Positions 3,001 through 19,775 of a stretch of DNA of 20,000 bases are shown one piece after another. Source of the stretch: an uncultured virus (IMG/VR IMGVR_UViG_3300008262_000044) (taxonomy: Duplodnaviria > Heunggongvirae > Uroviricota > Caudoviricetes); the IMG/VR virus record IMGVR_UViG_3300008262_000044. The stretch is one strand, 5' to 3'. Numbering within the stretch: the first letter of the stretch is position 1; every line of letters begins with the position of its first letter. Both the position numbers and the translations under genes were made by a program. The notes under the pieces are model-generated. The model was not told the origin of the DNA. It worked only from the letters and a program-made list of their open reading frames with translations, and searched no databases.

Positions 3001-3970
3001 GAATATCACTACCCGGAATTTCGTATGTCGATGGATATCCTCTAGTTGTCGAAATGGCTTGCCATTTAGTAGGCTGCAATCCGTATTCAAAGTCAGCATC
3101 AAGCATGGCCTGCGGAGCAGCCATTCTTTGTCGCTCCATTGCATCAGTACCAAATTGATACGGTCTAGTTCTTAATTCGTTTTCATCAACAAAAATTTGA
3201 ATAGAATCTGTAGATGCATGTGTACTGGTATTGTAATATAAAGTTAATTGTGTATAACCCTGTGCCCATTCTAACAATCTCGGAAATATGTCAGTTTCGT
3301 CTCGAATAAATTCTCTTACAGCACCTGCAGTAGGGTCACTAAAATCATATATAATTTCGTTTTTAGTTGTATTGGTAATTAAAAGAATTTGATTTTGTTC
3401 ATATTTTTTAGGAAATTTAAGTCTACCAACTCCGGTAACTTCTGTTGGCAAGGCACCTAATCCATTTTCAATTACATTGGTTAAAATTCCAACAAGCTCG
3501 GTTACTCTCGCGGTAGTTCCATTCTCAGTTATTTTTCCGGGAATAATAGCCTGCGATACCACTGCCTGATACGATGGTGCTGCGGTATTAGTAAGAATAT
3601 ATGTGTTAATTATACCTCTTAAAAATATATGTGTTTGAATTTCTACCTGTCTATCGCCGTCAATTTGCGGAACATCATTTACCCAATATTTAGAAGATAC
3701 ACGACGAGTTTCTTCATTTCCGCCATATCTTAAATCAAACAAATATGCATCGATGATATATCCTACATCCCTTTCACATTTTTCAGAATTAAAAACATAC
3801 CCAACAAATGGAGCAATGTTTGCAGTAACCTGTGCATTGATGTATGCCGTTGCTTCCTTTTTTAAATAAGTTTTATTTGCAAGAAGCAAATCATATGCAT
3901 TTGGTCTTGCATTACTAAGATACGAAAGACCTGGTTTAAAACTGTATTCTCTAAGTTGAATTTTTGCCAT
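2..3970 (-). CDS. Large mosaic virion structural / receptor-binding protein (>1323 aa, 3' end beyond window); paralog of the 2471-aa protein; contains a LamG/ConA-like domain
   Basis: Not in the ORF track because its stop lies outside the window. Hand translation from ATG at 3970 (11 nt after the upstream TAA) gives MAKIQLREYSFKPG... open to position 2 (...ILDERVFRVR). Shares LLITNxTKNxIxxxFxD, DxDFEYGLQxTKW, AEGTFxV, HRPFDGGV and KYxRYQSGKG with the 2471-aa protein. Confidence 0.9.
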   Translation of the reverse strand, partial: MAKIQLREYSFKPGLSYLSNARPNAYDLLLANKTYLKKEATAYINAQVTANIAPFVGYVFNSEKCERDVGYIIDAYLFDLRYGGNEETRRVSSKYWVNDVPQIDGDRQVEIQTHIFLRGIINTYILTNTAAPSYQAVVSQAIIPGKITENGTTARVTELVGILTNVIENGLGALPTEVTGVGRLKFPKKYEQNQILLITNTTKNEIIYDFSDPTAGAVREFIRDETDIFPRLLEWAQGYTQLTLYYNTSTHASTDSIQIFVDENELRTRPYQFGTDAMERQRMAAPQAMLDADFEYGLQPTKWQAISTTRGYPSTYEIPGSDILVVSVTTDASSTTNSIGPSIITVNCVSPHFLTAGTPISIKALASSVTGFSRAEGTFLVNTTPTATSFTYFSKSRVGSISGEVLSTSYTQLRVSGFYTGANIGGPTFSVASQGNSGSFITNLDYVAGENTLAFTGTAPQVGDPLTSNSAQFQATSSATTIFASSLVSGRIAVGQRLTGGSLPVGTRITEQQYGGNNDFVVQRTATGTSGQSTIVVNSAAQIVIGQLISGNNTTIAGLQPGTFVNNIAGTTITLSKALTGNINTTVSFYTPGGIGAYTTSVSTSLVISTLVNASAYNVGTQVSAIRGSGGVVVTAFATQNVEVGATSFTLLDANGVLPGHLINNGSNRAMEVSSVGGNTVSFLSGRTTRLVGSDASYTNLAGTSIASDGAGAISRFTVNAQNQYEFATAIYEGENYVQNDLCKISGDTLEVYASTRFLSRFNIPEGRTAQDSIDFENLYNGTTPSTSGVGLSYSQKKFGRTSAQTARIVGGMIQYAASNDYNTFGNFSFETFIYIQTISGSGANYIVDRRNTSTDNTWWIYVDGTTGNLVFGNSLNSITITGTTDVRTLLNQWIHIAVNRLSDEIKLWLNGVQEGPTANDTTNYQGNTQLTLGGTFDISSTSGINAFFDETRLRNVSTYSDPFTPTSNPFPADAVGATPANDITFRVATITSGGGILSASNITGTLPAGQSFSTGFIARGTAVVQTPIGNGASFNVNRVSGSYTGITLSQSGTGYLVGNLIRIPENLLDGEGNQSRNLILSVTQIAAGGGIISVSTISGTARSTGDPVQFLSSIDISDGLSGPLLNGTTTTYSAIAKILVTFPSGHGLTPGSSISVAIGSGGSNHALASGPFFVEDVPTKNTLRYTVRSAGLIGTSPGITGLIYPRTDAFFLHRPFDGGVLLSTGTPSHGAQAVRMSKKYIRYQSGKGAMYTTGALFAPSYDIRGIVADGTAVNSLITITIDDNDHGLQIKSDVRISGAITVGYNGDYEVVEILDERVFRVR
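1058..1585 (-). other. LamG / concanavalin A-like lectin domain within the left giant protein
   Basis: Translation KKFGRTSA...GNFSFETFIYIQT...NQWIHIAVNRLSDEIKLWLNGVQ...FFDETRLRNVSTYSDPFTP matches the Laminin_G_3-type pattern (FTxExW, WxHxAxxR, LYxNG, IDExRI, YxxxFTP). Boundaries approximate. Confidence 0.75.
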
Positions 3971-3981
3971 ATTTTTTCTCT

Positions 3982-5049
3982 TTAACCACCTAATGCAATT
4001 GCTAATGCAGTTGCTTTTCTATTTGCATAAACTTTTGTTGCCACTAGCGTATTAGTTTCTGGTGCAGTTGTTTGTGTTGTACCATCATTAAATACAATTT
4101 CTGATACATAACCAGCCTTAAATCTATAACTTGGATTACCTAACGCATATTGATTATTTACTGCCGGTACTAACACATATCTTCTATCATTATCTAATAC
4201 ATTTGTGGTTGTTAAAACTAATTGACCTGCTCCTTTAGCAAATGCATCAGTTGAAATGACTAAAGAAGTTTGTCCAGTTACTGAGGTTCCATTATAACCA
4301 GATTGTCTCATGTTAATTCCGCCGCTGGCATCAAATGCAACATCAGTTTCAAAACCAGCAGATGGTTTAATTTTTCCACTAGATGTCTTTGTTAAAATAT
4401 TAGTTTCAATGTCAACACCGCCACTACCTATCCATATTTTATTAAATCTGTTAGTATTAGAACCAATTTGTAGTGTGTTGTTTGTAAAAGATAAAATATT
4501 ACCTTTATTTGTTTGATCGTAATTTAATCTAATAGGACTGTTTATTTCTAATGTTGTAGAATCTGATGCGCCAATTTGATTATTTTGAAAATAAAATCCT
4601 TCAATGCTAACTCGTTGATCGGCGTTAATAACAATCGATCCAGATTCTGTTATTTGTACAAGTCCACTACCTGATGAATTTTGAAGTTTAATTGATGTAG
4701 CATTAACTGTACTATGTAATAAAAAGTCGGTGCCGTCAAAACTTAAACTACCTGCATTTTGACTACTTGAATTTTTAAATTCAATTTTTTCGTTGCTTCT
4801 TACATCTAAATTTCCAACCAACGACGTAACTGCCGTAATTGTACCCAAGGTTACATTAGTTGTTGCACCACCAAGATTTGAAAGATCTGACCGTAATAAC
4901 TCAAAACCTCCACGAGTTTCGCCGTCGTATAATCTTAAAGTTTTTGAATCATAGTCATAGGTAATTTCGCCGCGAAATCCTTCCCTAAAAGTTTTTAAAC
5001 TAACAGGAAGTAATCTTAATCGAGCAGCAAGTATCTCACGTGTTGGCAT
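3982..5049 (-). CDS. Tail-fibre-like protein, 355 aa, with Mtd_N-like N-terminal motif and -ALAIALGG C-terminus
   Basis: ORF track. SD-like AAGGTGG upstream of ATG. N-terminal GFRGEITYDYDSKTLRLYDGETRGGFELLRSDLSN resembles the major-tropism-determinant N-terminal motif. Fibre motifs YALGNPSYRF and IVFNDGTTQTTA. Confidence 0.8.
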   Translation of the reverse strand: MPTREILAARLRLLPVSLKTFREGFRGEITYDYDSKTLRLYDGETRGGFELLRSDLSNLGGATTNVTLGTITAVTSLVGNLDVRSNEKIEFKNSSSQNAGSLSFDGTDFLLHSTVNATSIKLQNSSGSGLVQITESGSIVINADQRVSIEGFYFQNNQIGASDSTTLEINSPIRLNYDQTNKGNILSFTNNTLQIGSNTNRFNKIWIGSGGVDIETNILTKTSSGKIKPSAGFETDVAFDASGGINMRQSGYNGTSVTGQTSLVISTDAFAKGAGQLVLTTTNVLDNDRRYVLVPAVNNQYALGNPSYRFKAGYVSEIVFNDGTTQTTAPETNTLVATKVYANRKATALAIALGG

Positions 5050-5067
5050 GTTATCCCACCTTTTTAT

Positions 5068-5074: not shown

Positions 5075-5088
5075 CATAATCAAAAGGT

Positions 5089-5123: not shown

Positions 5124-8100
5124 TTAGGCCTGTGATTCTTTCCAAGTAATTCGCGCAGTAACTGATGTAACTGCCGAAGTATCTGTTGGAACCATACAAA
5201 CACTTAACACATCAGGACCGTTCGGGAATACATAGTCACCACCAAGTACAGAATTTCCTAGATCAACTAGTTCATTCAAATCTTGAACTGTGACGTTTCC
5301 AGCAGTTGATGCAGTTGCACGGAATTCATAAATTGTAACTCCGCCCACAATACTATCAGTTGCTTGTCCAGTATGTTTAATCACTTGAGTTAATGACGGT
5401 GTACCAAAGTTAGCAAAATATGCCTGTTGTGATAATGCACCGTTTAGAATCAATCTTACTGAAGCAGGTCTACTATTGGTATTTTGTACAACAATACCTA
5501 CCTGTTGTAATGTAATACTCATACGGTTGATAATATCTCGATCACCCAATGCGCCTACAATACTGCTGTCAACACTTGGTGCTAGACGTAGACTTAAAAT
5601 TGGAGTAATAGTTGTACCACTAGTGTTTGCAGGAATGCTAATAGTATCGCTACCACCAGAACCTGTTGCAAGAGTAAACAAGTATGCCTTATCATCTTCA
5701 AATGTTCCATCCATAATTACCGAAGCACCCCAGTGATATAAGCTTGGTGCGTAAGTTGGTGCAGCACCATTCTTAATCTCGTAACGAGCAGGTAAATTAC
5801 CAGATCTCATATATGCTTCTACTTCTCTATTATTATGAATAAACTCATGAACATAAATTACTTTTCCGTCCGGACCTTTAAATCCAAAACGTACTTTACC
5901 TGCACCGTACCATGAATAATCAATGTAGGCCATTTGCATACGATTAACGTCAAGTACAAAACCGCTAGGTCCAGTACCATCGCATTTATCAAGACTCCAA
6001 CTACTTTGATTAACCTTGGTATCAACAACTTTGGTAATAACTGCTCCAGATACTGTCACTCCTCTGTATCTTGGTGTAACATGTAATTCAGTGTTACTGA
6101 CTACAACTACTACTTTCATAGTCTGTCCTCTAATTACAATAACATCACCGGCTGCTAACTGCTTAGTGAAATTAGTATCGGAACCTGTGACTAATCTACC
6201 TCTATTATTAATTGCAGCAGTTCCTCCAAGTTGTCCAGTTGCACTTCTACGTACACAACCTAACGCTTGTCCGTTATATTCGTAGAATAGACCGTTCTGA
6301 TCATCAAACATACCAGCACGAACTAGAGCATCCGACCATTCAGTTACAAACAGATTTGGAAATCCGCCCGGTGTAAGATCACCAGGAACACCGTTTGTAG
6401 CATAACGGAAAGTGAAATCATCAACTACATCAAATACTGTAAAATATCCAAGTCCGCCTGCTGGAGTTGTATACGGAGTTGCTGATCCAGAACCAACAAC
6501 AACCTGTTCAATTTTGATTCTATTAGTTGCAACTAATTTATGCGGTCTACGTGTTTTAACTGTTGCATAAGTTGTACCGTCGTGTGTGATACGATTTACG
6601 TCAATACTTGGACTAAAGTTAACACCTGTAGAATATTGTAGCCCTTTACCAGATTGATAGCGGAAATACTTGCGTGTCTGACGTACAATACTTACGTTTG
6701 GACTAGTTGATGCATTAATCTCAACACCGCCATCAAATGGTCTATGTACATTAGTACAATCTGGACGTACATATAATTCAGTTTCCTGAATAATTGGTAA
6801 TGCTAATAACACACCGTTTCTAACGTTACTTCCCTGTTGACCAGTAAAGAATATCGTACCTGTTGGTGCATTAGTTGTCAGTGCACCAGTATTGTCATAT
6901 CTAATATAGCTAGAACCTAGTACTGTTGATGCAATCAAGTAATGTTGGAAACCAGTACCACGAGTTGTAATATCAACTGGTATCATTCTCAATGCATTAT
7001 CTTCGTTGGTTGCTAATTGAATGATATCCTTGGTTTTTCTAATTACATAATAGGAAGTACCATCAGTTAATCCAGCCATTACAGTACCACTGTTAGGTAA
7101 ACCAAAGGTATAAACCACTTTTGTACCAGTATATAAATTATGGTCTGGTAGATAAATTTCATCAGTGTCAAGATTAACAACATCAATTTGCAAGCTAGCC
7201 ACACCAACAAAACTGCCCTGTGGATTAAATTGAATTTGTCTAGCAGTAAACGGATCAGTTACAATCATTTCTTGATCGTTTACTACAGACAATACATTCA
7301 TTTCATAGGTTACGTTTTCAATAACTGCAAATCTATGAGCAGCGTTACCTGTTGGAGCTACTGCTGTAATATTTACTGCTGTTTGTGTAGCAACTGCGCC
7401 ACCACCACTACCGCCTTCGATAGCTTCAGCGTAGGTGTTGTGCAGAGTAATATTATTAGCGTCTTGTCTGTTAACATAGTAAATTCTATTAGCTACTAAT
7501 CCGCCAATTGGTGTTTGATACGAAGTAGCGCCAGCAGTGTTAATTACTTGACTTTGAGTACCAACAGCTGGAGTTGTTCCTGCATGATTTCCGCCAATTG
7601 CATCAATTTCATAACGCACTGCGTCACCTGTTAATAATCTGTGAGCGGTGATTGTAATTGTATCATTGGCAACACTTGGTGCAGTGTTTGCGTTAAAATA
7701 AATTGTACGTTTTGGAATTTGATTACTTACCTTAACAGTATTGCCGCCTCTATAACTTACTAGGAATCTAGTACTGTATGATGGTAATGTAGGCACTCTT
7801 AACCAACTTAAATTATCCAAGTTAGTGGTTAGTGATACAGGAACTTGGCTGGCGCCAGTGTTGGCACTAGTCAAACTCATAAAGTATGTGTTGTTATATA
7901 AAACAACGTCACCGTATACATAAGTATCACTGGCGTTCCACTCGCCTCTATAAATTGTTCCTCTTAGAGTCGGATTCGATACTTTAAACTGGTGAACAGT
8001 TCCCAATCCTACACCAACAAGATCAACTAAGTCTGTATTGGTATACGCACCAACCCAAGTGTTGTGTAGAGAGAAGTTGTTGGCCGCTGATGCGCCACCA

Positions 8101-11100
8101 CCGCCCCTAGGTGCACCAGATGCAGTATTATTAACAAAATACTGGCGTCCATCAACCAGACCGTTAATTACACGACCACCGGCCCATACTCTATAAATTA
8201 CTCTGTCACCAGTTACTAAACCGTGTGAAGTAAAATTAATACGATCCGATGAAGCTAACACTGTAGCTGCTGAGCTACCGTTAACAATTAAATCTCTGGC
8301 TACAATTGTTGCTAGTCCACCCGATAAGCTTTCGCCAAATACCTGATCTGTAGTAAATGTATGGGCTCCGGCACTTCCTAAACTTGCAAATCTAGTAATA
8401 GCAATTCCTGCCAATGCATTTGCTTTGGTAGTTGCTAATTGGAAACTGTCTAAACCGGTTCTAATTACATAATATGCAGTATTATTGATTAGACTATTAT
8501 AAGTGTTGTTACCTGTTGGAGGAACTGTACCTTCACCAATAGCGTTGGCTAATGCTCCTTTTGAGTAGGTTACTTTGGTACCAGTATTAAATCCATGATT
8601 TGTAATTTGGAATTCACCGGTTTCCATTTGTAGATAATCTGCAGGTTCAAAGTAGAATATTCTATTTGAAACTGTAGTACCTATCGGTAAAGCAATAGTA
8701 TTATTTCCAACGCTGGTAGCAGTATAACCGCCATCTAAAGTTCCAGTAGACGATACATCTTCAAAAGTATGGTCAATAGCACTGCTGGCTAAACCTTGGA
8801 TAGGAACAGCATTATAGAAATGTATAAATGTCCAGTTAGTACCTGCAGTTGTAATATCAATTGGGAATCCTGCATAAGCCAATGCCGGTGTCAATGCTAA
8901 TCCAAATGTATTCGCATTAAAGATAATTGCAAAATAAACTACACCGTTACCTGCGCTAACACCTGTAGCAACACCGCCTGTGGTTGCAGCAACAGTTACA
9001 GTTTCACCTGCTTTTAAGTTATGAGTAGTAACAGTCCACCAATCGTTGGTAGCATCACCGGCACCGGCTGTAAGTTGTCTACTACGTCCAGCTTCTGTTT
9101 CAAATAGTTGGAAACTTCCGTATAGTTTTTCAACTAATGCTCCTTCTACAATAGCAGCAGCAGTTGTTGCTCGTTGTGCTCTGGTAACTGTTAGTGTAGT
9201 ACCTGAAATGTTAGTAATTAAAATAAACTCGGTACCTACTTTAATAGTGTCACCTATTGCTAATCCAGTGTTGGTAGTAATTGTCAAACTAGTTGCAACA
9301 GCAGTTGCAGCACTTAATGTTCCAGATATATTCCATAGAATAGTATTATTAACATTTCTAACAATATATTGTGTGTTGTTAACAAGACCAGGGTATCCAG
9401 ACAGGCCGCTACCTAAATCAAGTCCGCCGTTATTTTTATAACGAATAACAGCACCATCAACAAACACCTGATCTTGAATAGGTACTACAAATCTGTTGGC
9501 GTAAATGTTTTGAACAAATGGTGCAGTAAATGCCATTGGTGTACAAGCATTAGTTGTTTGAACAATTCCGCTTAACTGTACTGTTGGGTTACCTGTTGGT
9601 AACGCAGCCGATAACAGATGAACCTTAAAGATATCATTGGTGATTGGAACCATGTAGTACTGACTACCGCTGGTCAATCCAGGAATAACCTGTGTAGGCT
9701 GTGTTAGATATGTACGAATTCTTGGCCAGTTAGCACCAGTTGCATCAGTTACTGTGTCAAATAGTGGACCAGGATAATCTGGGCCAGTAGGATATACACC
9801 CTGTGATGCAATTCCTGTAACTAAATCAGTGGATCCTGAAAGATTTCCAACACGTTGATTTGTCTGTACTCCGCCGTGATTTGCTAGGAAGAAGCTGTTG
9901 CTAAATGGATTTTCATCAATTGCGCAGCAGAAAAATCTTCCGCCACCCGTAACACCTGTGCCACCGACACCAGAGGTAATTGTACCGCCACTAAAGTCAA
10001 CTGGTGAGCCTGTAGGAGTTAAGCTAATAGAAAATTCTACAACACCGTCACCAGTCCATACATTTCTTACATAGTAATATTGAAAAGCACCAAAAGTATT
10101 GGCACTGGTAGTCACACCAGTTGGCGCAGATGAACCAGTACCTAATTTTAGAATAATTTTTTGTCCTTCGTAGATATTTGCTGGCACAGTTTGATATTGA
10201 GAGATAACACGATCACGTGCTGCTCCGCTTCCACCTGTTGCTGTTGCAGTAAATGTGTTTACAGTAAATCCTGGCTGAATACACATAAAACCGCCTGCAA
10301 TTGTGGTCAATGCACTAAAGTCAAGTTTACTACCAGAAGTTGCACTGGCGTAAGGTCCTGTTGCTACTGAAACGTTTTCACCCCAAAATAGTTCAAATGA
10401 GTCAGCGTCTACTCTATTGACAAAATAGATTGCATCACCTGTAGGAACGTTAGTTCCACCACTATTGGCTTGCCCATAGTTTTGAAAAATTACTGGCTCA
10501 CCAGTTTCTAAACCGTGATTTTTAATGTAGATTGCATCGCTATTGGCAGTAATACCGCAGTGTTGCAGAGTAAACCATTTACCAGTTTTAGATCTCCAAT
10601 CGTCAATAGACGCACGATGTCTATTCCAAAGCGGATCTTCATGTAGTTGTGCTCTAATACCGAATCCTGTTACAGCATCATATCTGTTAAAACTGGTTGT
10701 ACCATTGCCACCAGAATTTAATACAGTGTAAACTTGACTGGCAGTTGCATTGATATCAACACCAGCTGCATTGGTTGGTCCCTGCATTCTAAAAGTAGTG
10801 CCATTTCTATCAAAACTGGTAGAGATAACTCTAAATACACCGTTTAATGCTGCAACATCTGCCCCGCTAACTGTAATTTGCTGTTTAGGAAAAATATTAA
10901 GTCCTTGACATGTATTTCCAGCTGTTAATGTAACAATATAAACTGAAGTTGCATTAACTGATTCAATAGAAGCAATATTAGGAATTACATCAGTACCGCG
11001 TCTAAACAATGCAAATGTATGAGTACCTGATCCAATACCGTTAAAAACTAATTGACTTGTATCGGCATATGCATCTTTTGGGTTCATGTATAACTTGAAA

Positions 11101-12539
11101 GTATCTGGTCCTGTTACATTAACAAACATAAATTTGCCCAATGTAGCACTTACCGCAGTACCGTATTGTGGTATTTGACCACCAGCATAGTTGAACCATG
11201 TAGATGCATTAGCATTGACCTGAGGCAACACTCCAGCTGGGCTAACACCAACATAAGCCACCATGTCTCCAGTTACTAGACCGTGTTTAGCCATAGTAAT
11301 TACGCCTGTTGAAATGTTAATATCAAGCTGAGTAATATTTCTTCTGATTGAACCGGTGTGGAATGGCTCAGTTGGATTAAAATAGCCAGTTCCGTAACTG
11401 GTTGCTGTATATGATACCGCACTACCGTTGGTATTTGATTGACTGATTGTATACGTACCAGTACCGCCTACTCCAGTACCGAATGCAGTAATGATACAGC
11501 CCGGAGTAAATGTTCCACCAGTAATAACAGATCCAATAGTTAACACTCCACTGGTCAATACTGTAACGGTCAGTGTTGTTGTACTAGTAGTGGCTGTAAA
11601 CACAGCGTTTGTTCCTGCTAAAGTTATACGATCGTCAACTTCGCCTGTTCCTGTAGTTAAAGAAACTGGATTAAAATCTAATTTTAAATTAGCAAGACTG
11701 TTTACCAAATAGAATGTACTGTTTGCTGGAAAGCCATGTCTTTGTTCAGTGTAGGCTGTTAAGGTACTAGGATTAGAACCGTTAGTAACTAACATACCTG
11801 TGGTGTTTGCAACAGAATTATCTAAATCTACTTGCGATCCTACATAGAATCTACCCAATGTAATTGTTACATATGGAGTAAAAATACTAGCCGGAACGGC
11901 AACATTACCTGGTTGAACAGCACGAGCTTCGTAAGTGAATGTTAAATCTGTAGTTCTTTTAACTACAAATGTACCTTCAGCAGACGGAGAACCTACTCCT
12001 CTTACATCAATAGGAATACCAGTAACAATACCGTGTGCAACACTGGTTGTTACTGTTACAATTCTTGTACCACTGGTTGTGATGCCAACAATGTTTGTTA
12101 ACGGAGTATCACCTAAAATGCTATGGAACGCTGGAACTTCATTCATGCGCTCTACGGTTTCCCACTTGGTAGATTGCAAACCGTATTCAAAGTCCGTATC
12201 AATAAGTGTGTTTGGTTGTGAAACACGCATCTTAGATACAGGATCTGTAAATGTCGGGCTTGGTTCTATTTCGTTGAAATCTTGTTCAATGAAAATCTGT
12301 AGATTATCACCAGCAAGCATTGCTGCACAATCGTATTGTAAAACAAACGTAGTTGTATCGTTTGCAGTACTATAAGTTGCACTGATAATTTTCTTTGTAG
12401 TATCAGCAAAGTTAAACAAAATAATGTTTTTTGTAACGTTTGTGATTAACAACACCCTTTTAGGTGAAACGTTACCATCGACCGTGATAGAATCTGATCC
12501 CGGTGTAAATGTATAATTGAAAACTAGTGTCTTAGCCAT
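5124..12539 (-). CDS. Giant (2471 aa) mosaic virion structural / fibre-associated protein with many HxLxTGxxVxY repeat modules
   Basis: ORF track. AAGGA SD upstream. G/T/N/V-rich beta-type composition. Repeated HG(L/F)xTG(D/E/T)xVxY...YYV...FxL modules, one CBM5/12-like module and a C-terminal core (RYQSGKG...GMFDDQNG...DGTGPSG...IDYSWYGAG...YMRSGNLPARYEI...WKE). Confidence 0.9.
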   Translation of the reverse strand: MAKTLVFNYTFTPGSDSITVDGNVSPKRVLLITNVTKNIILFNFADTTKKIISATYSTANDTTTFVLQYDCAAMLAGDNLQIFIEQDFNEIEPSPTFTDPVSKMRVSQPNTLIDTDFEYGLQSTKWETVERMNEVPAFHSILGDTPLTNIVGITTSGTRIVTVTTSVAHGIVTGIPIDVRGVGSPSAEGTFVVKRTTDLTFTYEARAVQPGNVAVPASIFTPYVTITLGRFYVGSQVDLDNSVANTTGMLVTNGSNPSTLTAYTEQRHGFPANSTFYLVNSLANLKLDFNPVSLTTGTGEVDDRITLAGTNAVFTATTSTTTLTVTVLTSGVLTIGSVITGGTFTPGCIITAFGTGVGGTGTYTISQSNTNGSAVSYTATSYGTGYFNPTEPFHTGSIRRNITQLDINISTGVITMAKHGLVTGDMVAYVGVSPAGVLPQVNANASTWFNYAGGQIPQYGTAVSATLGKFMFVNVTGPDTFKLYMNPKDAYADTSQLVFNGIGSGTHTFALFRRGTDVIPNIASIESVNATSVYIVTLTAGNTCQGLNIFPKQQITVSGADVAALNGVFRVISTSFDRNGTTFRMQGPTNAAGVDINATASQVYTVLNSGGNGTTSFNRYDAVTGFGIRAQLHEDPLWNRHRASIDDWRSKTGKWFTLQHCGITANSDAIYIKNHGLETGEPVIFQNYGQANSGGTNVPTGDAIYFVNRVDADSFELFWGENVSVATGPYASATSGSKLDFSALTTIAGGFMCIQPGFTVNTFTATATGGSGAARDRVISQYQTVPANIYEGQKIILKLGTGSSAPTGVTTSANTFGAFQYYYVRNVWTGDGVVEFSISLTPTGSPVDFSGGTITSGVGGTGVTGGGRFFCCAIDENPFSNSFFLANHGGVQTNQRVGNLSGSTDLVTGIASQGVYPTGPDYPGPLFDTVTDATGANWPRIRTYLTQPTQVIPGLTSGSQYYMVPITNDIFKVHLLSAALPTGNPTVQLSGIVQTTNACTPMAFTAPFVQNIYANRFVVPIQDQVFVDGAVIRYKNNGGLDLGSGLSGYPGLVNNTQYIVRNVNNTILWNISGTLSAATAVATSLTITTNTGLAIGDTIKVGTEFILITNISGTTLTVTRAQRATTAAAIVEGALVEKLYGSFQLFETEAGRSRQLTAGAGDATNDWWTVTTHNLKAGETVTVAATTGGVATGVSAGNGVVYFAIIFNANTFGLALTPALAYAGFPIDITTAGTNWTFIHFYNAVPIQGLASSAIDHTFEDVSSTGTLDGGYTATSVGNNTIALPIGTTVSNRIFYFEPADYLQMETGEFQITNHGFNTGTKVTYSKGALANAIGEGTVPPTGNNTYNSLINNTAYYVIRTGLDSFQLATTKANALAGIAITRFASLGSAGAHTFTTDQVFGESLSGGLATIVARDLIVNGSSAATVLASSDRINFTSHGLVTGDRVIYRVWAGGRVINGLVDGRQYFVNNTASGAPRGGGGASAANNFSLHNTWVGAYTNTDLVDLVGVGLGTVHQFKVSNPTLRGTIYRGEWNASDTYVYGDVVLYNNTYFMSLTSANTGASQVPVSLTTNLDNLSWLRVPTLPSYSTRFLVSYRGGNTVKVSNQIPKRTIYFNANTAPSVANDTITITAHRLLTGDAVRYEIDAIGGNHAGTTPAVGTQSQVINTAGATSYQTPIGGLVANRIYYVNRQDANNITLHNTYAEAIEGGSGGGAVATQTAVNITAVAPTGNAAHRFAVIENVTYEMNVLSVVNDQEMIVTDPFTARQIQFNPQGSFVGVASLQIDVVNLDTDEIYLPDHNLYTGTKVVYTFGLPNSGTVMAGLTDGTSYYVIRKTKDIIQLATNEDNALRMIPVDITTRGTGFQHYLIASTVLGSSYIRYDNTGALTTNAPTGTIFFTGQQGSNVRNGVLLALPIIQETELYVRPDCTNVHRPFDGGVEINASTSPNVSIVRQTRKYFRYQSGKGLQYSTGVNFSPSIDVNRITHDGTTYATVKTRRPHKLVATNRIKIEQVVVGSGSATPYTTPAGGLGYFTVFDVVDDFTFRYATNGVPGDLTPGGFPNLFVTEWSDALVRAGMFDDQNGLFYEYNGQALGCVRRSATGQLGGTAAINNRGRLVTGSDTNFTKQLAAGDVIVIRGQTMKVVVVVSNTELHVTPRYRGVTVSGAVITKVVDTKVNQSSWSLDKCDGTGPSGFVLDVNRMQMAYIDYSWYGAGKVRFGFKGPDGKVIYVHEFIHNNREVEAYMRSGNLPARYEIKNGAAPTYAPSLYHWGASVIMDGTFEDDKAYLFTLATGSGGSDTISIPANTSGTTITPILSLRLAPSVDSSIVGALGDRDIINRMSITLQQVGIVVQNTNSRPASVRLILNGALSQQAYFANFGTPSLTQVIKHTGQATDSIVGGVTIYEFRATASTAGNVTVQDLNELVDLGNSVLGGDYVFPNGPDVLSVCMVPTDTSAVTSVTARITWKESQA

Positions 12540-12558
12540 TTATTTCTATCCTTTTTAA

Positions 12559-12565
12559 TATTTAT
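12559..12565 (-). promoter_or_regulatory. Putative late promoter ATAAATA overlapping the upstream stop codon
   Basis: GGA TAA ATA on the minus strand, 19 nt before ATG at 12539. Confidence 0.55.
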
Positions 12566-15500
12566 CCGCCTAACGCAATGGCGTAAGCGATCGAGTTAAC
12601 GTTTGTTTGCGTATTGTTTGTATCAACATACGATTTAACTGCTGCCTCTGTTGGAACTGCTGAATTTGAATTTCCGCTTAGTGTGGTGTCTGATGAAAAT
12701 TCGTTAACCAATTCACCTAACTGAGCTCCAATACTACCTAATCTTAAACTGGTCAAACCGCTTAGATCGAATGCACTTGCATTTAACGTTGCTTTACCAG
12801 TTGCTTGATCGACTTTAAAGTATTCACCAACTCTGAAATTACCATCTTGGTCTGTTGTAACATAATAAACACGACCCGGATATGTTTCAATAACTTCATT
12901 TACTTGTGATGCTGCTTGTGAAGGAACACCTGGGTAATTAGTAGTACTAATGCCACCGGTACCAACACTTAAAAAGTCGTGACCTGTTAGTCTGACTGTA
13001 CTAAATCTGTATCTTAGAGTAACTGCGGTAGTATCTGCGCTTGCTGTTAATTTTTCTGTTGTTAAAATTACCAACGCATAACCTGCAGGTTTATAACCAC
13101 TACCACCTGCTGAATAATCAGCAACCGTTTGAATAATATATGGTTGAGAATCGCCGGCAATTGTAATACTGCCACCTGGTCTAGGTTCAGAACTAAATCC
13201 AGATAATGCTAATACAAATCCTTTCTGTCCTGTTACACCGCCGGTGGCAATAACTGCGCTTACTCCAGAACCATTTGAAACAGTTTCGCCTGCTTGGAAT
13301 GTATTAGATACTGCTTTATAATAAATTCTGCTAACACCCTCTTGCGAACTCAATACCGTTCCAGTGGCTCCTGATACACTACCAGTAATTGTCTGCCCTG
13401 GACTAAACGAACCGCCAACGATACTTTGATATGTAATTAGTCCGCCATGCAATACACCAGTCACCGGAGTTTCAAATGTATCAAATCCTTCTGATGCTGA
13501 TCCATAAGTTCCGTAACTATTATTACCGTTTAATGCACGAATTTGACCACCGTCTGATGAAGCATATCCAAACACACAATAATAAGTGAACACAGAAACT
13601 AGTTCTGCTTTAGCTGCATGTCTGGTCCAGACTCCAACACCCCCATCGTTGATACATGTAAAGTTACTTAGGACCATTGATTTATTGCCGGTATTATGAA
13701 CTCCGCCGTCAATTAACGCACCAATGCCTGCGGTAGAAAATGTAGTAACATCCTGAATATATGGACTCTTAGTAGTTACAGGACTGTCAGGATTTAGTGC
13801 AAAGAATACACCGCCTCTAGTCGCTGCTTCAATACTAGTTGGTGTTCCGCCACTTATTGCAAACCCGTTCATGCCTGTACAATTTAGATCTTTTACCATC
13901 GAAGCATTACTCATTAAGAACATAGTTGTTCTACTGTTCAATGTTGATCCGTCTGTACTAGTTCCTGCGGCTGCTGTTACAGTAGTAGTTCTTACACCGT
14001 CGCCAACGATTGAAACGCTAGCCGGTACTACAATAGGTAGTTGTTCTGTATAAGTTCCGCTCTTAACATAAATTGTTGCGGGTCCAGTGACTTGTGTGCA
14101 GGCATATCTAATAGATGCAAATGCACGATTCAGTGTTCTGCCGTTATTACTATTACTACCTTCGGGAGTGACATAATAGACATTTGCTGTTTGATTATTA
14201 TTTTCGTATCCAGGAATTCCAGCTGCACTGGCTACCAAAATTTGACCATTAGTACCAATTGGTAATCTTGCTACTGAGCCAGCCGAGTTTCTAAAATAAG
14301 TATCGCCCGTGGTTGTTAAAACAGGACCTAAGTCACCTGTTTGAGCAACTAGCTGCCACGAACCGGGCGACGAAACTGGATCGTTTCCAATATTATCACT
14401 AACAATAGAAATATACGAACTCTGTAAGTATGAAACAACATCATCTAAATCATATTCAGTGCCGGCACTCCAAGTGCCCATCCATTTCATACCAGAACTT
14501 AATAGTTCCCAGTATGTAGCATTTGGTGGTTCAATATTGGTTGCGTTATCTGATGTGTGCGCTAGGATACAAAGATAAACACGACCACCGTATCTAACAG
14601 CTTCGCCTGGTTTGTAAGCTGTAGCGTTTGCGTAATTTCCCACAAACGATAAACCGTCGACAAATTTTGTCCAATATGTGGCATTTGTCGGAACTTGGTT
14701 TGTTGCTGTTAAAATATTAACATATACATGTCCGCCGTATTTTACTAAATCTCCTGGAACATACGGATGTGCTGGAGCTCCTGTCCATATTCCTCTAAAC
14801 TGGAATCCTTTGGCAAATAAATCCCATTTGGTATTATCTGATGGTTCTTGATTAATTGCTACATCAACTTTGGCTGCATAGATACTACCACCATAATCAA
14901 CTAATTCACCTGGTTTATAAGTACCGGCAGTACTGTAAGTACCAACGTAAGTATAACCTTTAACTAGTACATCCCAATAGGTTGCATTAGTTGGAAGATT
15001 TCCTGTAGTGGTTTGTTTTGCAATATATTGGTATCCGCCGTATTGAACAACTTCCCCAATATTATAAGTTGTTCCGCCGGCATAAGTGCCGCTAAATTTA
15101 GAGCCAGTATTAAGCGTATCCCAGAAAGTTGCATTACTTGGAGCATTGCCTGTGGTATCTTGTTTGGCAACGAACGTATGTGCTCCAAAACTAACAATAT
15201 CACCTTTTCTATATGCAGTCCCTCCTGCGTAAGCACCTCTAAATTGAACACCGGTTGTGATTGCAGTCCAGTATACTGGATCAGTTGGCAAATTCCCTAA
15301 TGTGGTCTGTACTGCTACATATGAGTTTGAACCGTATGTTACAACGTCACCTGGTTGATATGAAGTGCCTCCAGCATATGCTCCTTCAAATTGTAGACCA
15401 GACGCAAATAATGTGAACTTAGCTACATCAAATGTTGATGTACTAGTGTGATGTAAATTACAGATGTATAACTGTCCGCCATAACTAACAACATCGTTAA

Positions 15501-15906
15501 CTTTATATCTTACAGCAGAAGACCATGCACCGCCAAATGCAATACCGTCTACTAAAACTTCCCAGTTGGCAGAGTTTTGTTCTAGTCCCAGTGCAGCGGT
15601 AGCAGCAGAAGTGTGACCAGTAATACAAATATAAGCGCGGCCTCCGTACTTGACTACGTCGGCAACTTTATAATATGTACTGGTCGCCCACGCTTGTGCC
15701 CACTGAATACCGTCATTCATTAACTGCCATCTAGTGGATAAATCGCTATAAAAGCCCCCTGCTACGGTTGCAGATGATGTGTGACTTGATACGCACACAT
15801 AAGCCTTGCCACCATATCTTACAATATCGTCTTTAACATATGCAGTAGATGTTGTCCATGTATTCTTCCATACAAAACGCAATCTACCTAATTTAAACTC
15901 TGCCAT
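12562..15906 (-). CDS. Tail fibre / tailspike-like protein, 1114 aa: ten CBM5/12(ChtBD3)-like repeats, fibre linker, pectin-lyase-like beta-helix, -AYAIALGG C-terminus
   Basis: ORF track. GAGGA SD. Repeats of FxGx(W/Y)xxxxxYxxxDxVxYGGxxYx(C/A)...W. Linker LTTTGDTYFR...RLPIGTNGQIL. NVYYVTPEGSNSNNGRTLNRAFASIRYAC...TIYVKSGTYTEQLPIVVPASVSIVGDG is a typical start of a right-handed beta-helix. Confidence 0.85.
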   Translation of the reverse strand: MAEFKLGRLRFVWKNTWTTSTAYVKDDIVRYGGKAYVCVSSHTSSATVAGGFYSDLSTRWQLMNDGIQWAQAWATSTYYKVADVVKYGGRAYICITGHTSAATAALGLEQNSANWEVLVDGIAFGGAWSSAVRYKVNDVVSYGGQLYICNLHHTSTSTFDVAKFTLFASGLQFEGAYAGGTSYQPGDVVTYGSNSYVAVQTTLGNLPTDPVYWTAITTGVQFRGAYAGGTAYRKGDIVSFGAHTFVAKQDTTGNAPSNATFWDTLNTGSKFSGTYAGGTTYNIGEVVQYGGYQYIAKQTTTGNLPTNATYWDVLVKGYTYVGTYSTAGTYKPGELVDYGGSIYAAKVDVAINQEPSDNTKWDLFAKGFQFRGIWTGAPAHPYVPGDLVKYGGHVYVNILTATNQVPTNATYWTKFVDGLSFVGNYANATAYKPGEAVRYGGRVYLCILAHTSDNATNIEPPNATYWELLSSGMKWMGTWSAGTEYDLDDVVSYLQSSYISIVSDNIGNDPVSSPGSWQLVAQTGDLGPVLTTTGDTYFRNSAGSVARLPIGTNGQILVASAAGIPGYENNNQTANVYYVTPEGSNSNNGRTLNRAFASIRYACTQVTGPATIYVKSGTYTEQLPIVVPASVSIVGDGVRTTTVTAAAGTSTDGSTLNSRTTMFLMSNASMVKDLNCTGMNGFAISGGTPTSIEAATRGGVFFALNPDSPVTTKSPYIQDVTTFSTAGIGALIDGGVHNTGNKSMVLSNFTCINDGGVGVWTRHAAKAELVSVFTYYCVFGYASSDGGQIRALNGNNSYGTYGSASEGFDTFETPVTGVLHGGLITYQSIVGGSFSPGQTITGSVSGATGTVLSSQEGVSRIYYKAVSNTFQAGETVSNGSGVSAVIATGGVTGQKGFVLALSGFSSEPRPGGSITIAGDSQPYIIQTVADYSAGGSGYKPAGYALVILTTEKLTASADTTAVTLRYRFSTVRLTGHDFLSVGTGGISTTNYPGVPSQAASQVNEVIETYPGRVYYVTTDQDGNFRVGEYFKVDQATGKATLNASAFDLSGLTSLRLGSIGAQLGELVNEFSSDTTLSGNSNSAVPTEAAVKSYVDTNNTQTNVNSIAYAIALGG
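14335..15906 (-). repeat. Ten tandem protein-level repeats (most 49-55 aa), CBM5/12-like
   Basis: Ten units counted in residues 1-524, each ending near W/F-x5-G, e.g. LQFEGAYAGGTSYQPGDVVTYGSNSYVA...YWTAITTG and VQFRGAYAGGTAYRKGDIVSFGAHTFVA...FWDTLNTG. Divergent at DNA level. Confidence 0.85.
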
Positions 15907-15927
15907 GGTTAATCCTCGTTAATTTTA

Positions 15928-15934
15928 TATTTAT
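15928..15934 (-). promoter_or_regulatory. Putative late promoter ATAAATA overlapping the upstream stop codon
   Basis: CAA TAA ATA on the minus strand, 21 nt before ATG at 15906. Confidence 0.55.
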
Positions 15935-16305
15935 TGTCCAACATCTACTAAACTATAATCGTATTTTTTATTGATACGTGCTACTAGTTCACCATTCTCA
16001 TTGATATAATAATAAATGTTACGCTCGTCCCACTTATATTGATCAAAATATAAATTTGGGTATGGTTTTGTTTTATCTTCTAATGTACCATCAAAAAAAT
16101 CAACACCAAATTCAAAATCATTAAAATTTTCGTCAAACGGTCCGGCAACATTAATAGGAACTATATCGTCTCCCAAGACCTGGTCAACTTTACTTAAAAA
16201 AATGTTACCTTCTGCATCGCGACGAAGTCCGTAAAAATATCTAATATTACCTTCACCAAGCATTGAGCCTAGATCTGGTGCGCCAACGTAATATGTTTGA
16301 CTCAT
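15931..16305 (-). CDS. Hypothetical phage protein, 124 aa (acidic, aromatic-rich; likely structural adaptor)
   Basis: ORF track. SD AAGGA overlaps the upstream stop. Fills the gap in a tightly packed operon. Confidence 0.8.
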   Translation of the reverse strand: MSQTYYVGAPDLGSMLGEGNIRYFYGLRRDAEGNIFLSKVDQVLGDDIVPINVAGPFDENFNDFEFGVDFFDGTLEDKTKPYPNLYFDQYKWDERNIYYYINENGELVARINKKYDYSLVDVGQ

Positions 16306-16317
16306 TTTTATAATTCC

Positions 16318-16647
16318 TTATGTAATTTCTACGTAACTTACAACAACGTCAACAGAATCTGGTTTTGTACTGACAACTTTCATTTCGTTATCGCTCATTA
16401 AAATTAATTTTTCTCCACCATTGATTGCTCTTAACGTTTGAAACGGTGGAATAATTGTTTCTTTAATAAAGTATGCTGTAGTACTAGATGTATCTGTCAT
16501 TAACACACTAACCTGAACTGCTTCCTCTAACAAATTGGTCATACTAAATCCAATAATTGTAACTCTAGCAGAAGCTCCCGTTTGAATAACTTGTGTTGGT
16601 GTTGTTCCGATTTCTGGTATAACTGTATTTTTAAATGCTGTTGCCAT
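16318..16647 (-). CDS. Small all-beta phage structural protein, 109 aa (MATAFKN... type)
   Basis: ORF track. Starts 3 nt after the upstream stop, with AGGA inside the last upstream codons. Alternating hydrophobic strand pattern ending GEKLIL...VDVVVSYVEIT. Confidence 0.85.
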   Translation of the reverse strand: MATAFKNTVIPEIGTTPTQVIQTGASARVTIIGFSMTNLLEEAVQVSVLMTDTSSTTAYFIKETIIPPFQTLRAINGGEKLILMSDNEMKVVSTKPDSVDVVVSYVEIT

Positions 16648-16650
16648 TTT

Positions 16651-18162
16651 TTATCCTAGTTGTATAACTTTCTCAATTGCAACGTCAATTGCTGTTTGTT
16701 CAGTAATAGCACCCTGAGCGCCGGATGGATTTTGCCATTGTAAACCGTTCCAAACTTCAACAACTTGAGTATCGGTGTTAAAACGAGTCATACCAACTAC
16801 TGCATATGCTGTTGGCCTTTCTAAGTTAGTACCAACTGGTAATACAAATCCGTTGGTGCCTTGAAATTTAAAATATCCATTTCCTGTTGGCTGTAATAAA
16901 CTTACTGCATCATTTACAGTGTTTGTAATAGTATTGTTATTAAATGCAAAATTTGCTAATCTAACTGCGCCAGTACCGTTGGCCTCAATAGTGAAATTTT
17001 CATTAGTTACAGTTGTTGTAATTAAATTACCTTGAATACTAATATTACCGACAGTTAACGAATTTTTAATGTCAAATCTAGTTGTATTCATATCCGCAAC
17101 TAACGAACCATTTGCATAAAATCTAATAGTATTGTCATTTGCACCCGGTGTTAGTTCTGCTGTAATTTTAGTATTACCGTCGGCATCTTCTACGCCCGAT
17201 AATCCATACCATGCTGATCCGTCATACCCTTCATATTTGCTAGTTTCCGTATTATATCTAATCATGCCCGGACTAGCGGGGAATGGTCTTTGAGCAATTG
17301 TTCCTTTTGGTAATGTAATTGCTTGAGTTGTATCAAATCTAACTACCCCAGATCCGTTAGGACGTATTAGTAAATCTTCGTTGTTGTCCCATGTAGAAAT
17401 TACATTTTCATTAATATCTATTTTTTCTAATCTTATAGCACCGGTACCGTTGGCTTTAAGTTCTAAATTAGCGTTTGAAGTAATTGTTCTAATAACATTA
17501 TCGAATATTTCAATATCAGATAGTAATATATTATTAGCATTAAGATTTTTCCATCTTAATTGCGGAGTTCCTAGCGTATAAGTATCCGTAGTTTCTGGTC
17601 TTAAATTGCTGGTAATACCTGCAACGATAGAAATGGTATCTGTTGCTTCATCACCAATTGTAATATTACCACCAATATTAATATTACCGTCTGCTGTAAT
17701 ATTTCCTGTTGTATATAAATTACCATATACATTAGCATCAGAAAATACTTCAACTTTACCAGTACCATTTGGTCTAAACTGTAAATTTGAATTTGAAACA
17801 GCAGTTGAAATTTGATTATTTTGAATTACTAGATCATCAACTTGAATCTTAGATTGATAAACAGTAAAGTCATTGTTAGCAGGTAACAACGATAAAGTGT
17901 TTGTAGTTGAACTTAAATTGTTGCCATTGAAAATTAGATTAGCTATTCTTGATTCGTTAACAACTTCTAAATCTATGGTACGTGTAGTACCTGCAACATC
18001 TAAATCGTATTGAGGATTATTCGTGTTGATGCCCACTCTTGGAGTTGCATTAGTGGGTGATGCCACTTTTAAGAATAATAGATCGGTCTCAAAAGCCAGA
18101 TCTACTCCGTTACGAAGCAAATTTGCCTTTAAGAGCGGACCGGAAATACGACCAACAGCCAT
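16651..18162 (-). CDS. Tail-fibre-like structural protein, 503 aa; paralog of the 497-aa protein
   Basis: ORF track. GAGGAG SD. Internal IxxNxIxT..SNxNLxxxxNGTGxV repeats. Two LPxGTxxxRP...GMxR(Y/F)NT...E..G..W motifs. Confidence 0.88.
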   Translation of the reverse strand: MAVGRISGPLLKANLLRNGVDLAFETDLLFLKVASPTNATPRVGINTNNPQYDLDVAGTTRTIDLEVVNESRIANLIFNGNNLSSTTNTLSLLPANNDFTVYQSKIQVDDLVIQNNQISTAVSNSNLQFRPNGTGKVEVFSDANVYGNLYTTGNITADGNINIGGNITIGDEATDTISIVAGITSNLRPETTDTYTLGTPQLRWKNLNANNILLSDIEIFDNVIRTITSNANLELKANGTGAIRLEKIDINENVISTWDNNEDLLIRPNGSGVVRFDTTQAITLPKGTIAQRPFPASPGMIRYNTETSKYEGYDGSAWYGLSGVEDADGNTKITAELTPGANDNTIRFYANGSLVADMNTTRFDIKNSLTVGNISIQGNLITTTVTNENFTIEANGTGAVRLANFAFNNNTITNTVNDAVSLLQPTGNGYFKFQGTNGFVLPVGTNLERPTAYAVVGMTRFNTDTQVVEVWNGLQWQNPSGAQGAITEQTAIDVAIEKVIQLG

Positions 18163-18269: not shown

Positions 18270-18281
18270 TCAAAATTGGAT

Positions 18282-19775
18282 TTAACCAAAGATGATGGTG
18301 TAAAGATCAATGATTTCTTCAAGTTGAGTTTGAGTAACAGTCGAACTTGGTCCAATTATAAGAGCATACTCGGTTCCGTTGAATACTTCTAAATTACCGG
18401 TGTCGGTATTTAAACGGAAGTCGCCAGTTTGAGTACCCGGTGGGGCTGTTGTAATAGTTGGACCGTTGGGAATAGCTAGCGCATTGGTTCCAGCAATTTT
18501 AAAATACCCTCGGCCTACAGTATTTAAAAGTATGTTTTGATTGGTGCTGAAAATTGTGTCGCCGCTAAATTTAAATTGTTCAACACTTAAATCTCCAGTA
18601 CCTTGCGCTTCGATCCTAATATCACCGTTAAGTACTGATGTACTGATTTTACTAACTGTTGATTCAATCGACAGTGTGTCATTTACAGAAATTTTGGTTG
18701 CATTGATTTTTGTTTGATCGATTGTGGTTTTTATTGCTCCACTAATTTGAAATTTAATAACATTACTGTTAACAGATTTTATGTCATCAATGTAGACTCG
18801 TGTGTTTCCGTCAAGATCAGAAACTTGAGTAAATCCCACAACTGTTCCACCAAACCCTTCAAAATTATTTTTTGTAGAATTAAATCTAAACTCTCCGTCA
18901 TTCAGTGATGATCGATCTCCAGTAGTGCCTACAGGTACTAATATTGCGTTAGTTTTATCAAATACAACAGTTGGATTAAAAACTACAGTTGTTCCAACAT
19001 TATTCGAAATTACATTATTGGTGAATCGTATTTGTTCTGCTAAAACGCCGCCGGTCGCACTACCAGATAATTCTAAGTTAGAATTAGAGATAGTAGTTTT
19101 AATAGTGTTGGCTTCAATTCTAATATTTTCTAAATCTATATAATCTGAAAGATATGCTGTTCGCCATCTAAAATTTGGAATTCCTAAAGAATAAGTTCCT
19201 GTAGTAGATGGATTTAAGTTTTGTGAAAATACCGGATTAATTGCTACAGTATCATTAGGATCCGCACCAATAGCAATTTGGCCGCCTATAGATACATCTC
19301 CGTCAACTAATATATTACCAGATAGATATAGATTTCCGTTAATATCCAATTGCTGATAAAAATTAACATCGCCAGTTCCGGATGGATCTAGATTAATATT
19401 AACGTTACTATTTTTTGAGCCAATGACATTACCATCAAAATATAGATCATCTGTTTCATTTCGATCTATAAGGATAACACCATTTTGTCCCCCGGCCGCT
19501 TGCAGATATAACGGTCCGTTGATTGTTTTTAATTGATCATTTTCAACAATAATGCCTTCTAATGTGGCACGAGGAGCAATTAATTCAACTGTACGAGTTT
19601 TACCATCTATTTGTAGAGTTCTACTGAAAGCATCGGTATTGATACCAATGCCTCCCGCACCGCTATTAAGACCTACGTCAAGATATAATAAGTCTGTATC
19701 AAAGGCGAGATCAACATCCTGTCTAAGCAGGTTGTCTGCAAGCATGGGGCCGGAAATTCTACCAATATCTGACAT
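18282..19775 (-). CDS. Tail-fibre-like structural protein, 497 aa; paralog of the 503-aa protein
   Basis: ORF track. AAGGAAG SD. N-terminus IGRISGPMLADNLLRQDVDLAFDTDLLYLDV aligns with VGRISGPLLKANLLRNGVDLAFETDLLFLKV and is collinear throughout. Confidence 0.88.
   Translation of the reverse strand: MSDIGRISGPMLADNLLRQDVDLAFDTDLLYLDVGLNSGAGGIGINTDAFSRTLQIDGKTRTVELIAPRATLEGIIVENDQLKTINGPLYLQAAGGQNGVILIDRNETDDLYFDGNVIGSKNSNVNINLDPSGTGDVNFYQQLDINGNLYLSGNILVDGDVSIGGQIAIGADPNDTVAINPVFSQNLNPSTTGTYSLGIPNFRWRTAYLSDYIDLENIRIEANTIKTTISNSNLELSGSATGGVLAEQIRFTNNVISNNVGTTVVFNPTVVFDKTNAILVPVGTTGDRSSLNDGEFRFNSTKNNFEGFGGTVVGFTQVSDLDGNTRVYIDDIKSVNSNVIKFQISGAIKTTIDQTKINATKISVNDTLSIESTVSKISTSVLNGDIRIEAQGTGDLSVEQFKFSGDTIFSTNQNILLNTVGRGYFKIAGTNALAIPNGPTITTAPPGTQTGDFRLNTDTGNLEVFNGTEYALIIGPSSTVTQTQLEEIIDLYTIIFG

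Follow-up and report, generated by a model that had tools for sequence, protein, structure and literature searches.

We analysed a 20,000-nucleotide (nt) stretch of DNA from an uncultured virus (IMG/VR record IMGVR_UViG_3300008262_000044), hereafter the window, which covers part of the fibre module of a marine T4-like myovirus. Our subject is a short apolar tail at the C-terminal end of several fibre-like proteins encoded there, together with the N-terminal domain of the product of the following gene. The minus strand holds every long open reading frame (ORF) in the window, and transcription runs through genes for proteins of 497, 503, 109, 124, 1114, 2471, 355, and 1918 amino acids (aa), the lengths by which we refer to them (Table 1). 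No named phage with near-identical DNA was found; the closest protein matches, at 36-40% identity, came from the Synechococcus and Prochlorococcus myoviruses S-CAM1, P-SSM5, and S-SSM7, and also from Pelagibacter phage Mosig.

Table 1. Genes of the window in order of transcription, with sub-features of the two giant proteins; positions are those of the window, and tail types are defined in the text.
Feature	Position	Strand	Description
497-aa fibre	18282..19775	-	N-terminus GRISGP…LAFDTDLL; last 10 residues (18285-18314) IIDLYTIIFG, type-C tail
503-aa fibre	16651..18162	-	Paralogue of the 497-aa protein; last 10 residues (16654-16683) VAIEKVIQLG, divergent type-A-like tail
109-aa MAxxFKN protein	16318..16647	-	Predicted single 8-strand jelly roll; may serve type-A tails as a free-standing socket or fibre cap
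124-aa protein	15931-16305	-	phrog_8997 (E = 6.7e-18)
1114-aa fibre	12562..15906	-	CBM_5_12 repeats, phrog_9851 tail-fibre family; last 10 residues (12565-12594) SIAYAIALGG, type-A tail
2471-aa giant	5124..12539	-	Virion-structural-type; phrog_5838 and phrog_1645
N-terminal beta-sandwich of 2471-aa giant	12255-12539	-	Residues 1-95; type A
Most conserved stretch of 2471-aa giant	12132-12245	-	Residues 99-136
355-aa fibre-like protein	3982..5049	-	Last 10 residues (3985-4014) ATALAIALGG, type-A tail
Second giant	2..3970	-	Runs off the window edge; the ORF has 1918 aa in the 40.8-kb contig; Laminin_G_3 domain
Insert in sandwich of second giant	3400-3928	-	Residues about 15-190

The 355-aa and 1114-aa proteins end in KATALAIALGG and NSIAYAIALGG, respectively. 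A BLASTP comparison of the two found nothing in common beyond the tail (best E = 1.3), in which 8 of 13 positions are identical, and AIALGG is the sole terminal hexapeptide in common among the 41 ORFs of at least 60 aa in the contig. Because none of 2000 shuffles yielded any common terminal hexapeptide, chance can be excluded as the source of this sharing. Each tailed gene is followed at a short distance by the gene for a giant protein: after the 1114-aa gene come 22 nt and then the 2471-aa giant, which begins MAKTLVFNYTFTPG…RVLLITN, and after the 355-aa gene come 11 nt and then the 1918-aa giant, which begins MAKIQLREYSFKPG…QILLITN. Both giants begin with the pattern MAK…Y.F.PG…LLITN, and they are paralogous in their N region (E = 2e-27) and C region (E = 9e-17). 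A first-pass annotation of this DNA had pointed to near-identical tails on otherwise unrelated proteins and to a giant with a MAK…LLITN start directly after each, and these results bear out both points. It had also described the 503-aa gene as coupled to the 109-aa gene, and the stop of the former indeed lies 3 nt from the start of the latter. The endings of the 497-aa and 503-aa proteins read as it had given them (IIDLYTIIFG and VAIEKVIQLG), but their likeness is a matter of paralogy: the two proteins, whose genes are 119 nt apart, are full-length paralogues (35% identity, E = 4e-82), and thus their tails are not independent evidence. Two details of that description are not supported. The tail had been taken for a hydrophobic helix, probably trimeric, but nothing found here points to a helix or a trimer, and its alternation of small and large apolar residues suits a beta-strand at least as well; the final GG is not a conserved part of it, as endings in G, GG, A, S, GS, or none of these occur.

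The proteins that follow the tails are giants of a virion-structural type. Both belong to the family of the S-PM2 p173-type virion structural protein (phrog_5838, phrog_1645); the 2471-aa giant matches phrog_5838 with E = 3.4e-166 and, through its C-terminal domain, phrog_1645 with E = 2.1e-52, and the 1918-aa fragment scores E = 1.6e-96 against profiles of giant virion-structural families. A tblastn comparison also showed homology to S-PM2 d173, a protein that carries the annotation virion structural protein (37.8% identity, E = 3e-71). The 2471-aa protein consists of an N-terminal beta-sandwich, a DPVSK…DTDFEYG…KWE stretch, beta-barrel repeats, and a C-terminal domain. A model of residues 1-240, built from a 51-sequence alignment, gave a confident 8-strand sandwich at residues 1-95 with a predicted local distance difference test (pLDDT) score of 90-97. 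For this fold the only matches, to S-layer Ig-like domains, were weak (Z 5-6), and no solved relatives of the 2471-aa protein were found by sequence. The most conserved stretch of the family, DPVSK.RVS.P..LIDTDFEYGLQ.TKWE, comes directly afterward; its residues 110-136 had a pLDDT below 50 when the N-terminal 240 aa were modelled alone, and folding of this stretch may depend on the C-terminal domain or on a partner. The barrel that succeeds it resembles an endosialidase barrel domain (Z 10.1), and the top matches from Foldseek and VIA concern this second domain. A profile of the N-terminal domain matched 3666 clusters at 50% identity. The candidate socket sits at the very N-terminus of the giants, with profile position 1 falling on residue 1 in 125 of the best 150 of these 3666 matches. 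The 1918-aa giant carries an insert of about 180 residues in its N-terminal sandwich, between MAKIQLREYSFKPG and QILLITN, which has no counterpart in the 2471-aa paralogue or in S-CAM1; a few relatives (P0035, P0147) show the same offset.

We surveyed the junctions between tailed genes and giants from both sides, in each survey reading the best 80 of more than 500 relatives, on IMG/VR contigs that are mutually related. From the side of the giants, the N-terminal profile has at least 586 relatives in IMG/VR, of which the best 80 loci were read. Type-A giants begin MAKKLxxxYxF…LLITN, and type-A tails follow the consensus [IV]A[LYF][SA]IAL(G). At 55 of the 76 loci with the giant start in view, an ORF ending 2-99 nt upstream carried a tail that matched a loose regular expression, and a further 10 of the 76 upstream ORFs were tail variants by eye (LTYSLTFGF, MGMMAALGW, LAVALAAAL, AVFSIALS). 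When the surveyed loci were pooled with the contig and with three loci from named phages, the tail expression matched 38 of 391 ORFs that were 100 aa or longer, nearly all of them these same upstream genes. Lengths of the upstream tailed proteins run from 44 to 1114 aa, and many of these proteins are unrelated to one another: once trimmed of their last 15 residues, the upstream proteins formed 24 BLAST clusters, most of them tail-bearing, and the tail was found on mini-proteins of 44-75 aa as well as on collagen-like, CBM-rich, and other unrelated bodies.

Exceptions in the type-A survey brought to light a second subfamily of giants, type B, with the N-terminus MARKVLLETxYTFTP…RERL.LITN and a tail of its own upstream, Y-P-F-[KR]-[AP]-x-D-I-[LM]-L-G-x. 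We cross-tabulated tail and N-terminus for 131 distinct junctions, assigning N-type by competing hidden Markov models of the first 100 residues. Tail A preceded 51 of the 68 giants of N-type A, with A-variants recognized by eye before 13, other ends before 3, no upstream ORF in 1 case, and neither tail B nor an end of the LamG type in any. Tail B preceded 44 of the 58 giants of N-type B; here 5 upstream proteins had LamG-type ends, 5 had other ends, 4 giants had no upstream ORF, and tail A and its variants were absent. The remaining 5 junctions were of ambiguous N-type, the 1918-aa giant of the window among them owing to its insert. No cross-pairing, of tail A with N-type B or the reverse, was found in this table, and the code-like pairing suggested in the first-pass annotation is seen here in that the second tail type goes only with the second N-domain type.

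The same surveys turned up other arrangements in the giant family. LamG-type ends (…NYNALKHRFGL, …LRTRFGL) occur on large proteins before some type-B-like giants (L216, which is S-PM2 d174/d173, and L221, L222, L291, and L293), and they may represent a further junction type or no joint at all. Some members of the family (L086, L087, L239, and L277) have no N-terminal sandwich, their start lying shortly ahead of DPVSK…DFEYG, and the genes upstream of them are tailless. Apparently complete short giants of 260-460 aa were also considered, and those that were read proved to be contig fragments.

From the side of the tails, a degenerate pattern for IAY[AS]IA[LF]G found at least 119 stretches, 80 of which were read with their flanks. 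The stretch stood at the very end of an ORF in 63 of these 80, while the other 17 were internal or in short frames, in unrelated contexts. The distinct type-A junctions numbered 51, and they led to a giant N-domain in 36 cases, to a 109-aa-family protein (100-120 aa) in 11, and to something else in 4, namely one divergent giant-like start, two members of another family, and one case with too little DNA. For the type-B pattern YPFKAxDI[LF]LG, all 57 matches were terminal, and tail B led to a type-B giant in 44 of 44 distinct junctions. Tailed genes thus lead to giant N-domains or to the MAxxFKN 109-aa family and not to random families, as the first-pass annotation had anticipated. The two junctions with another family (L123 and L151) lead to proteins of at least 498 aa that start MPTRPIHIKSLAGVKRDG….

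Three kinds of observation indicate that the tail goes with the partner. First, one cluster of bodies joined by shared fibre repeats has 14 members with tail A and 44 with tail B, and 25 matches link A bodies directly to B bodies; tail type therefore tracks the downstream partner and not the body. Second, two complete genomes (G012 and G005) hold both tail types, each with its own partner. In the first of these (172 kb), three to four A-type tails stand before 109-like proteins or an adaptor: proteins ending …SVAFSIALG, …IISSIIFGG, and …AFLFGGM precede 109-like proteins, whereas the genome's sole tail B, at the end of a 140-aa protein (…IYPFKATDIFLGY), precedes a type-B giant; the second (338 kb) has tail B before its type-B giant and tails …AVALSLIFG and …AIGFNIMI before other partners, which include one 109-like protein. 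Third, in S-CAM1 a 380-aa protein ending …VAFSIALG is followed after 14 nt by a giant starting MAKRQIRDYVFSPG…, while the S-CAM1 homologue of the 1114-aa fibre (L001, 8907-12561) retains the …KAVKTYVD… motif, ends …GFTFWAGAM, and has no giant behind it but only a weak match (E = 2e-4) to the model of the 109 family. The same fibre body thus has a different end where the partner differs. Pairs of a tail and a 109-family protein also occur where no giant was found, for instance in the complete genome of Pelagibacter phage Mosig and in an 86%-complete 37-kb contig.

A possible daisy chain is visible in G012 at L436 (G012:C1:96500-114500, locus 10145-18001). The 140-aa protein with tail B is itself preceded there by a 1780-aa fibre ending …AIAMSIVFGG (tail A), and it would serve as an A-to-B adaptor.

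We also examined what is conserved at the tails at the level of DNA. Among 30 distinct type-A tails, codon positions 1 and 2 are fixed and third positions have an entropy of 1.3-1.8 bits; serine is encoded by both TCN and AGY and leucine by both CTN and TTR, the stop codon varies, and the distance from the stop to the next ATG ranges from 2 to 49 nt. The variable third positions and variable spacing indicate selection on the peptide and not on the DNA. They also answer a caveat of the first-pass annotation, according to which the terminal codons might double as promoter or Shine-Dalgarno bases.

The second partner of tail A is the 109-aa family. An AlphaFold2 model of the 109-aa protein is an 8-strand jelly roll (pLDDT 91, predicted template modelling score 0.80). 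Its VIA matches include an Ena pilus subunit (Z 9.9, root mean square deviation 2.5 over 96 aligned residues), a viral turret (Z 9.7), and a trimeric cement protein (Z 9.4), and it also resembles TNF/C1q-like heads; these resemblances, at Z 7-10, are to a common fold. The protein has no Pfam (E <= 0.01) or PHROG family. Many viral proteins in BFVD are structurally like it, and some of these, in S-TIM5, MaMV-DC, and S-SCSM1, are called virion structural proteins, going by their names only. Upstream, the order seen in the window recurs in relatives. A type-C tail, L-x-x-[IVL]-[YW]-[TAS]-L-[IV]-[LF]-G, ends the gene upstream of fibres starting GRISGPLL…LAFETDLL in 45 of 57 distinct cases in IMG/VR, mostly with a gap of 117-159 nt. 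The complete fibres of the GRISGP type (n = 35) end in I-A-[IA]-x-[FY]-A-L-T-L-G; 34 of them are followed by an ORF, which in 32 cases encodes a 109-family protein 3-13 nt away. Since these 497/503/109 arrangements are orthologous, they add little independent weight.

Collectively, these data lead us to propose that the last 8 to 12 apolar residues plug into the N-terminal domain of the next gene product, forming a typed end-to-end joint between fibre proteins, a reading to which we assign a probability of roughly 60%. The plug in this scheme would be the C-terminal apolar peptide, and the socket would be the domain at the N-terminus of the product of the gene directly downstream. Plug A would bind the N-terminal beta-sandwich of type-A giants. 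It would also bind members of the 109-aa family, free-standing jelly rolls of 100 to 120 aa that would each cap a fibre, while plug B would bind the type-B sandwich (MARKVLLETxYTFTP…LITN). The joints predicted in the window are 1114 to 2471, 355 to 1918, and 503 to 109, and the 497-to-503 junction may be of a third kind. The peptide could be accommodated by strand addition, conceivably of the donor-strand complementation kind known from chaperone-usher or Ena-type pili, or by burial in a trimer axis. We observe the tails, their restriction to junctions, the matching of types in both directions, selection at the level of the peptide, a socket at residue 1, and partner-specific tails within genomes; physical binding, its geometry and stoichiometry, and its persistence in the virion are what we infer. 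A broader form of the proposal, which we consider about evenly balanced, is that of a portable typed code (plugs A, B, and perhaps C) in which a peptide of 8-12 residues specifies the next protein, such that adaptors (44-140 aa), fibres (about 1,000 aa), and giants (at least 2,000 aa) are daisy-chained in abundant marine T4-like phages and some smaller ones.

Several observations weigh against an end-to-end joint of this kind. Both giants of this genome are preceded by the same plug A, and the tail alone therefore cannot distinguish them; the plug gives no specificity at the level of the cassette. Plug A precedes two partner families without detectable sequence homology: a comparison of the 109-aa family with the first 100 residues of the giants gave an hhalign probability of 0.4%. 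Fused forms of the Rosetta stone kind were absent from the top 150 N-domain matches, and no longer 109-family relatives were found as fusions, which is weak evidence. In the 131-junction table, a tailed gene is missing upstream of the giant at 3 type-A and about 13 type-B junctions. The S-PM2 giant d173 is one giant of this kind, its upstream neighbour d174 having a LamG-type end and no tail, and a further genome (G008) has two giants without a tailed upstream gene. Finally, the survey counts are not independent events, because the contigs are related.

It is also conceivable, if unlikely, that the tail is an intrinsic element for the folding, registration, or capping of trimeric fibres, foldon-like and acting on its own chains only, with synteny of the fibre module creating the link to the downstream gene. 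All four fibre-like proteins of the window bear a variant of the tail whatever comes next, an aromatic-small-apolar-x-apolar-G pattern is common to types A and C, the type-C junctions represent orthologous synteny, and some giants manage without a tailed upstream gene. However, tail type tracks the type of the downstream N-domain and not the body family or the genome, downstream families other than the giants and the 109-aa family occur in just 4 of 51 type-A and 0 of 44 type-B junctions, and the bodies that carry tails include mini-proteins of 44-75 aa and unrelated collagen-like and CBM-rich proteins.

Chaperone genes typically sit right after fibre genes, and a 109-aa-type gene lies 3-13 nt after the fibre gene in 32 of 34 cases. 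The tail could accordingly be a recognition tag for a downstream product that acts as a transient assembly chaperone of the Tfa or T4 gp38 class, with no permanent joint. We think this improbable, since homologues of the giants, such as S-PM2 d173, are annotated as virion structural proteins, the proteins of S-TIM5, MaMV-DC, and S-SCSM1 that resemble the 109-aa protein in structure likewise bear that name (names only), and no Pfam chaperone family matches.

If the tail and the downstream N-terminus both bound a further component (a baseplate or hub site, for instance) and not each other, the occurrence of plug A before two unrelated partner families would be accounted for, the genes being simply co-inherited. 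This arrangement leaves unexplained the strict adjacency (gaps of 1-69 nt), the matched A and B types, and the G012 daisy chain in which a 1780-aa protein with tail A precedes a 140-aa protein with tail B and then a giant, and we consider it very unlikely. A nucleic-acid element (DNA or RNA) that overlaps the end of the gene (late promoter, Shine-Dalgarno sequence, translational coupling, or recombination linker) has next to no standing: the final glycine codons do adjoin A-rich spacers ahead of the next ATG, but such an element is contradicted by the variation described above in third positions, serine and leucine codons, stop codon, and gap, and by the two tail copies of the window, which differ at 4 of 6 AIALGG codons, every change being synonymous.

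Other features of the window concern the bodies of the fibre proteins and their neighbours. The 1114-aa protein matches the phrog_9851 profile over its whole length (1031 bits) and is 36-40% identical to its homologues in S-CAM1, P-SSM5, and S-SSM7. Its N-terminal half contains at least 5 CBM_5_12 repeats of the chitin-binding type (E = 3.2e-47), which is unusual in a phage of marine picoplankton. A search for solved relatives by sequence gave only CBM matches for this protein and none for its last 120 aa. The 124-aa gene lies directly upstream of the 1114-aa fibre family, an arrangement kept in S-CAM1, S-SSM7, and IMG/VR relatives. In Pfam, neither the 109-aa nor the 124-aa protein matched Tfa or Caudo_TAP, and Peptidase_S74 was not matched by the 355-, 1114-, 503-, or 497-aa protein; the 355-aa protein had an End_tail_spike match that fell below the cut-off (E = 5.5e-4). 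A tailed 126-aa protein of Mosig carries the annotation Peptidase_S74 intramolecular chaperone.

The proposed joint is probably a new variant of end-to-end fibre docking. The long tail fibre of T4 is a chain, gp34-gp35-gp36-gp37, of separate gene products. As is inferred here, the products of that chain are joined end to end, and gene order is assembly order, from proximal to distal. However, no sequence relation to gp34-gp37 was detected; the connecting element here is a short portable C-terminal peptide of at least two matched types on many unrelated bodies, and the partners are the N-terminal sandwich of a giant or a small jelly roll. In the branched receptor-binding-protein systems (Klebsiella phages, CBA120, and the G7C type), conserved docking peptides and T4gp10-like domains hold interchangeable binding proteins. 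There the incoming protein bears the plug at its N-terminus, whereas here the preceding protein would bear it at its C-terminus, with the next N-terminus as the socket. The Tfa proteins of Mu, P2, and lambda are encoded just downstream of the fibre gene and recognize the C-terminal part of the fibre; here no Tfa family match was found, and partners extend to structural proteins of 2,000 aa.

The 503-to-109 joint has a closer counterpart in gp38. Dunne et al. 2018 reportedly describe an S16-type gp38 adhesin on the gp37 tip. Such an adhesin is a small protein encoded right after the fibre gene that binds the C-terminal end of the fibre and remains as the virion tip, and in these respects it resembles the proposed joint. 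In phages of the T2/T6 type, the gp38 adhesin likewise sits at the gp37 tip (Trojet et al. 2011, PMC3157838). The 109-aa gene occupies the gp38-like position directly downstream of the fibre, with its 3-nt gap, as do its counterparts in 32 of 34 relatives. Unlike gp38, the 109-aa protein has no Pfam family and is a plain 8-strand jelly roll with no glycine-rich domain. A literature search by motif strings and by topic found no description of the tails or of their pairing with sockets, and the examined passages of PMC12801897 make no mention of the tails.

No structures are known for the fibre networks of marine cyanophages and pelagiphages, although these networks govern host range in viruses that rank among the most abundant on Earth. 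If the typed joint proposed here is correct, the order and branching of fibre components would be predictable from sequence alone, by gene order and tail type. It would also account for the mounting of the giants and for the exchange of binding modules with the joint retained. Swaps of A and B tails would then provide a simple handle with which to test and engineer fibre composition in cultured phages such as S-CAM1.

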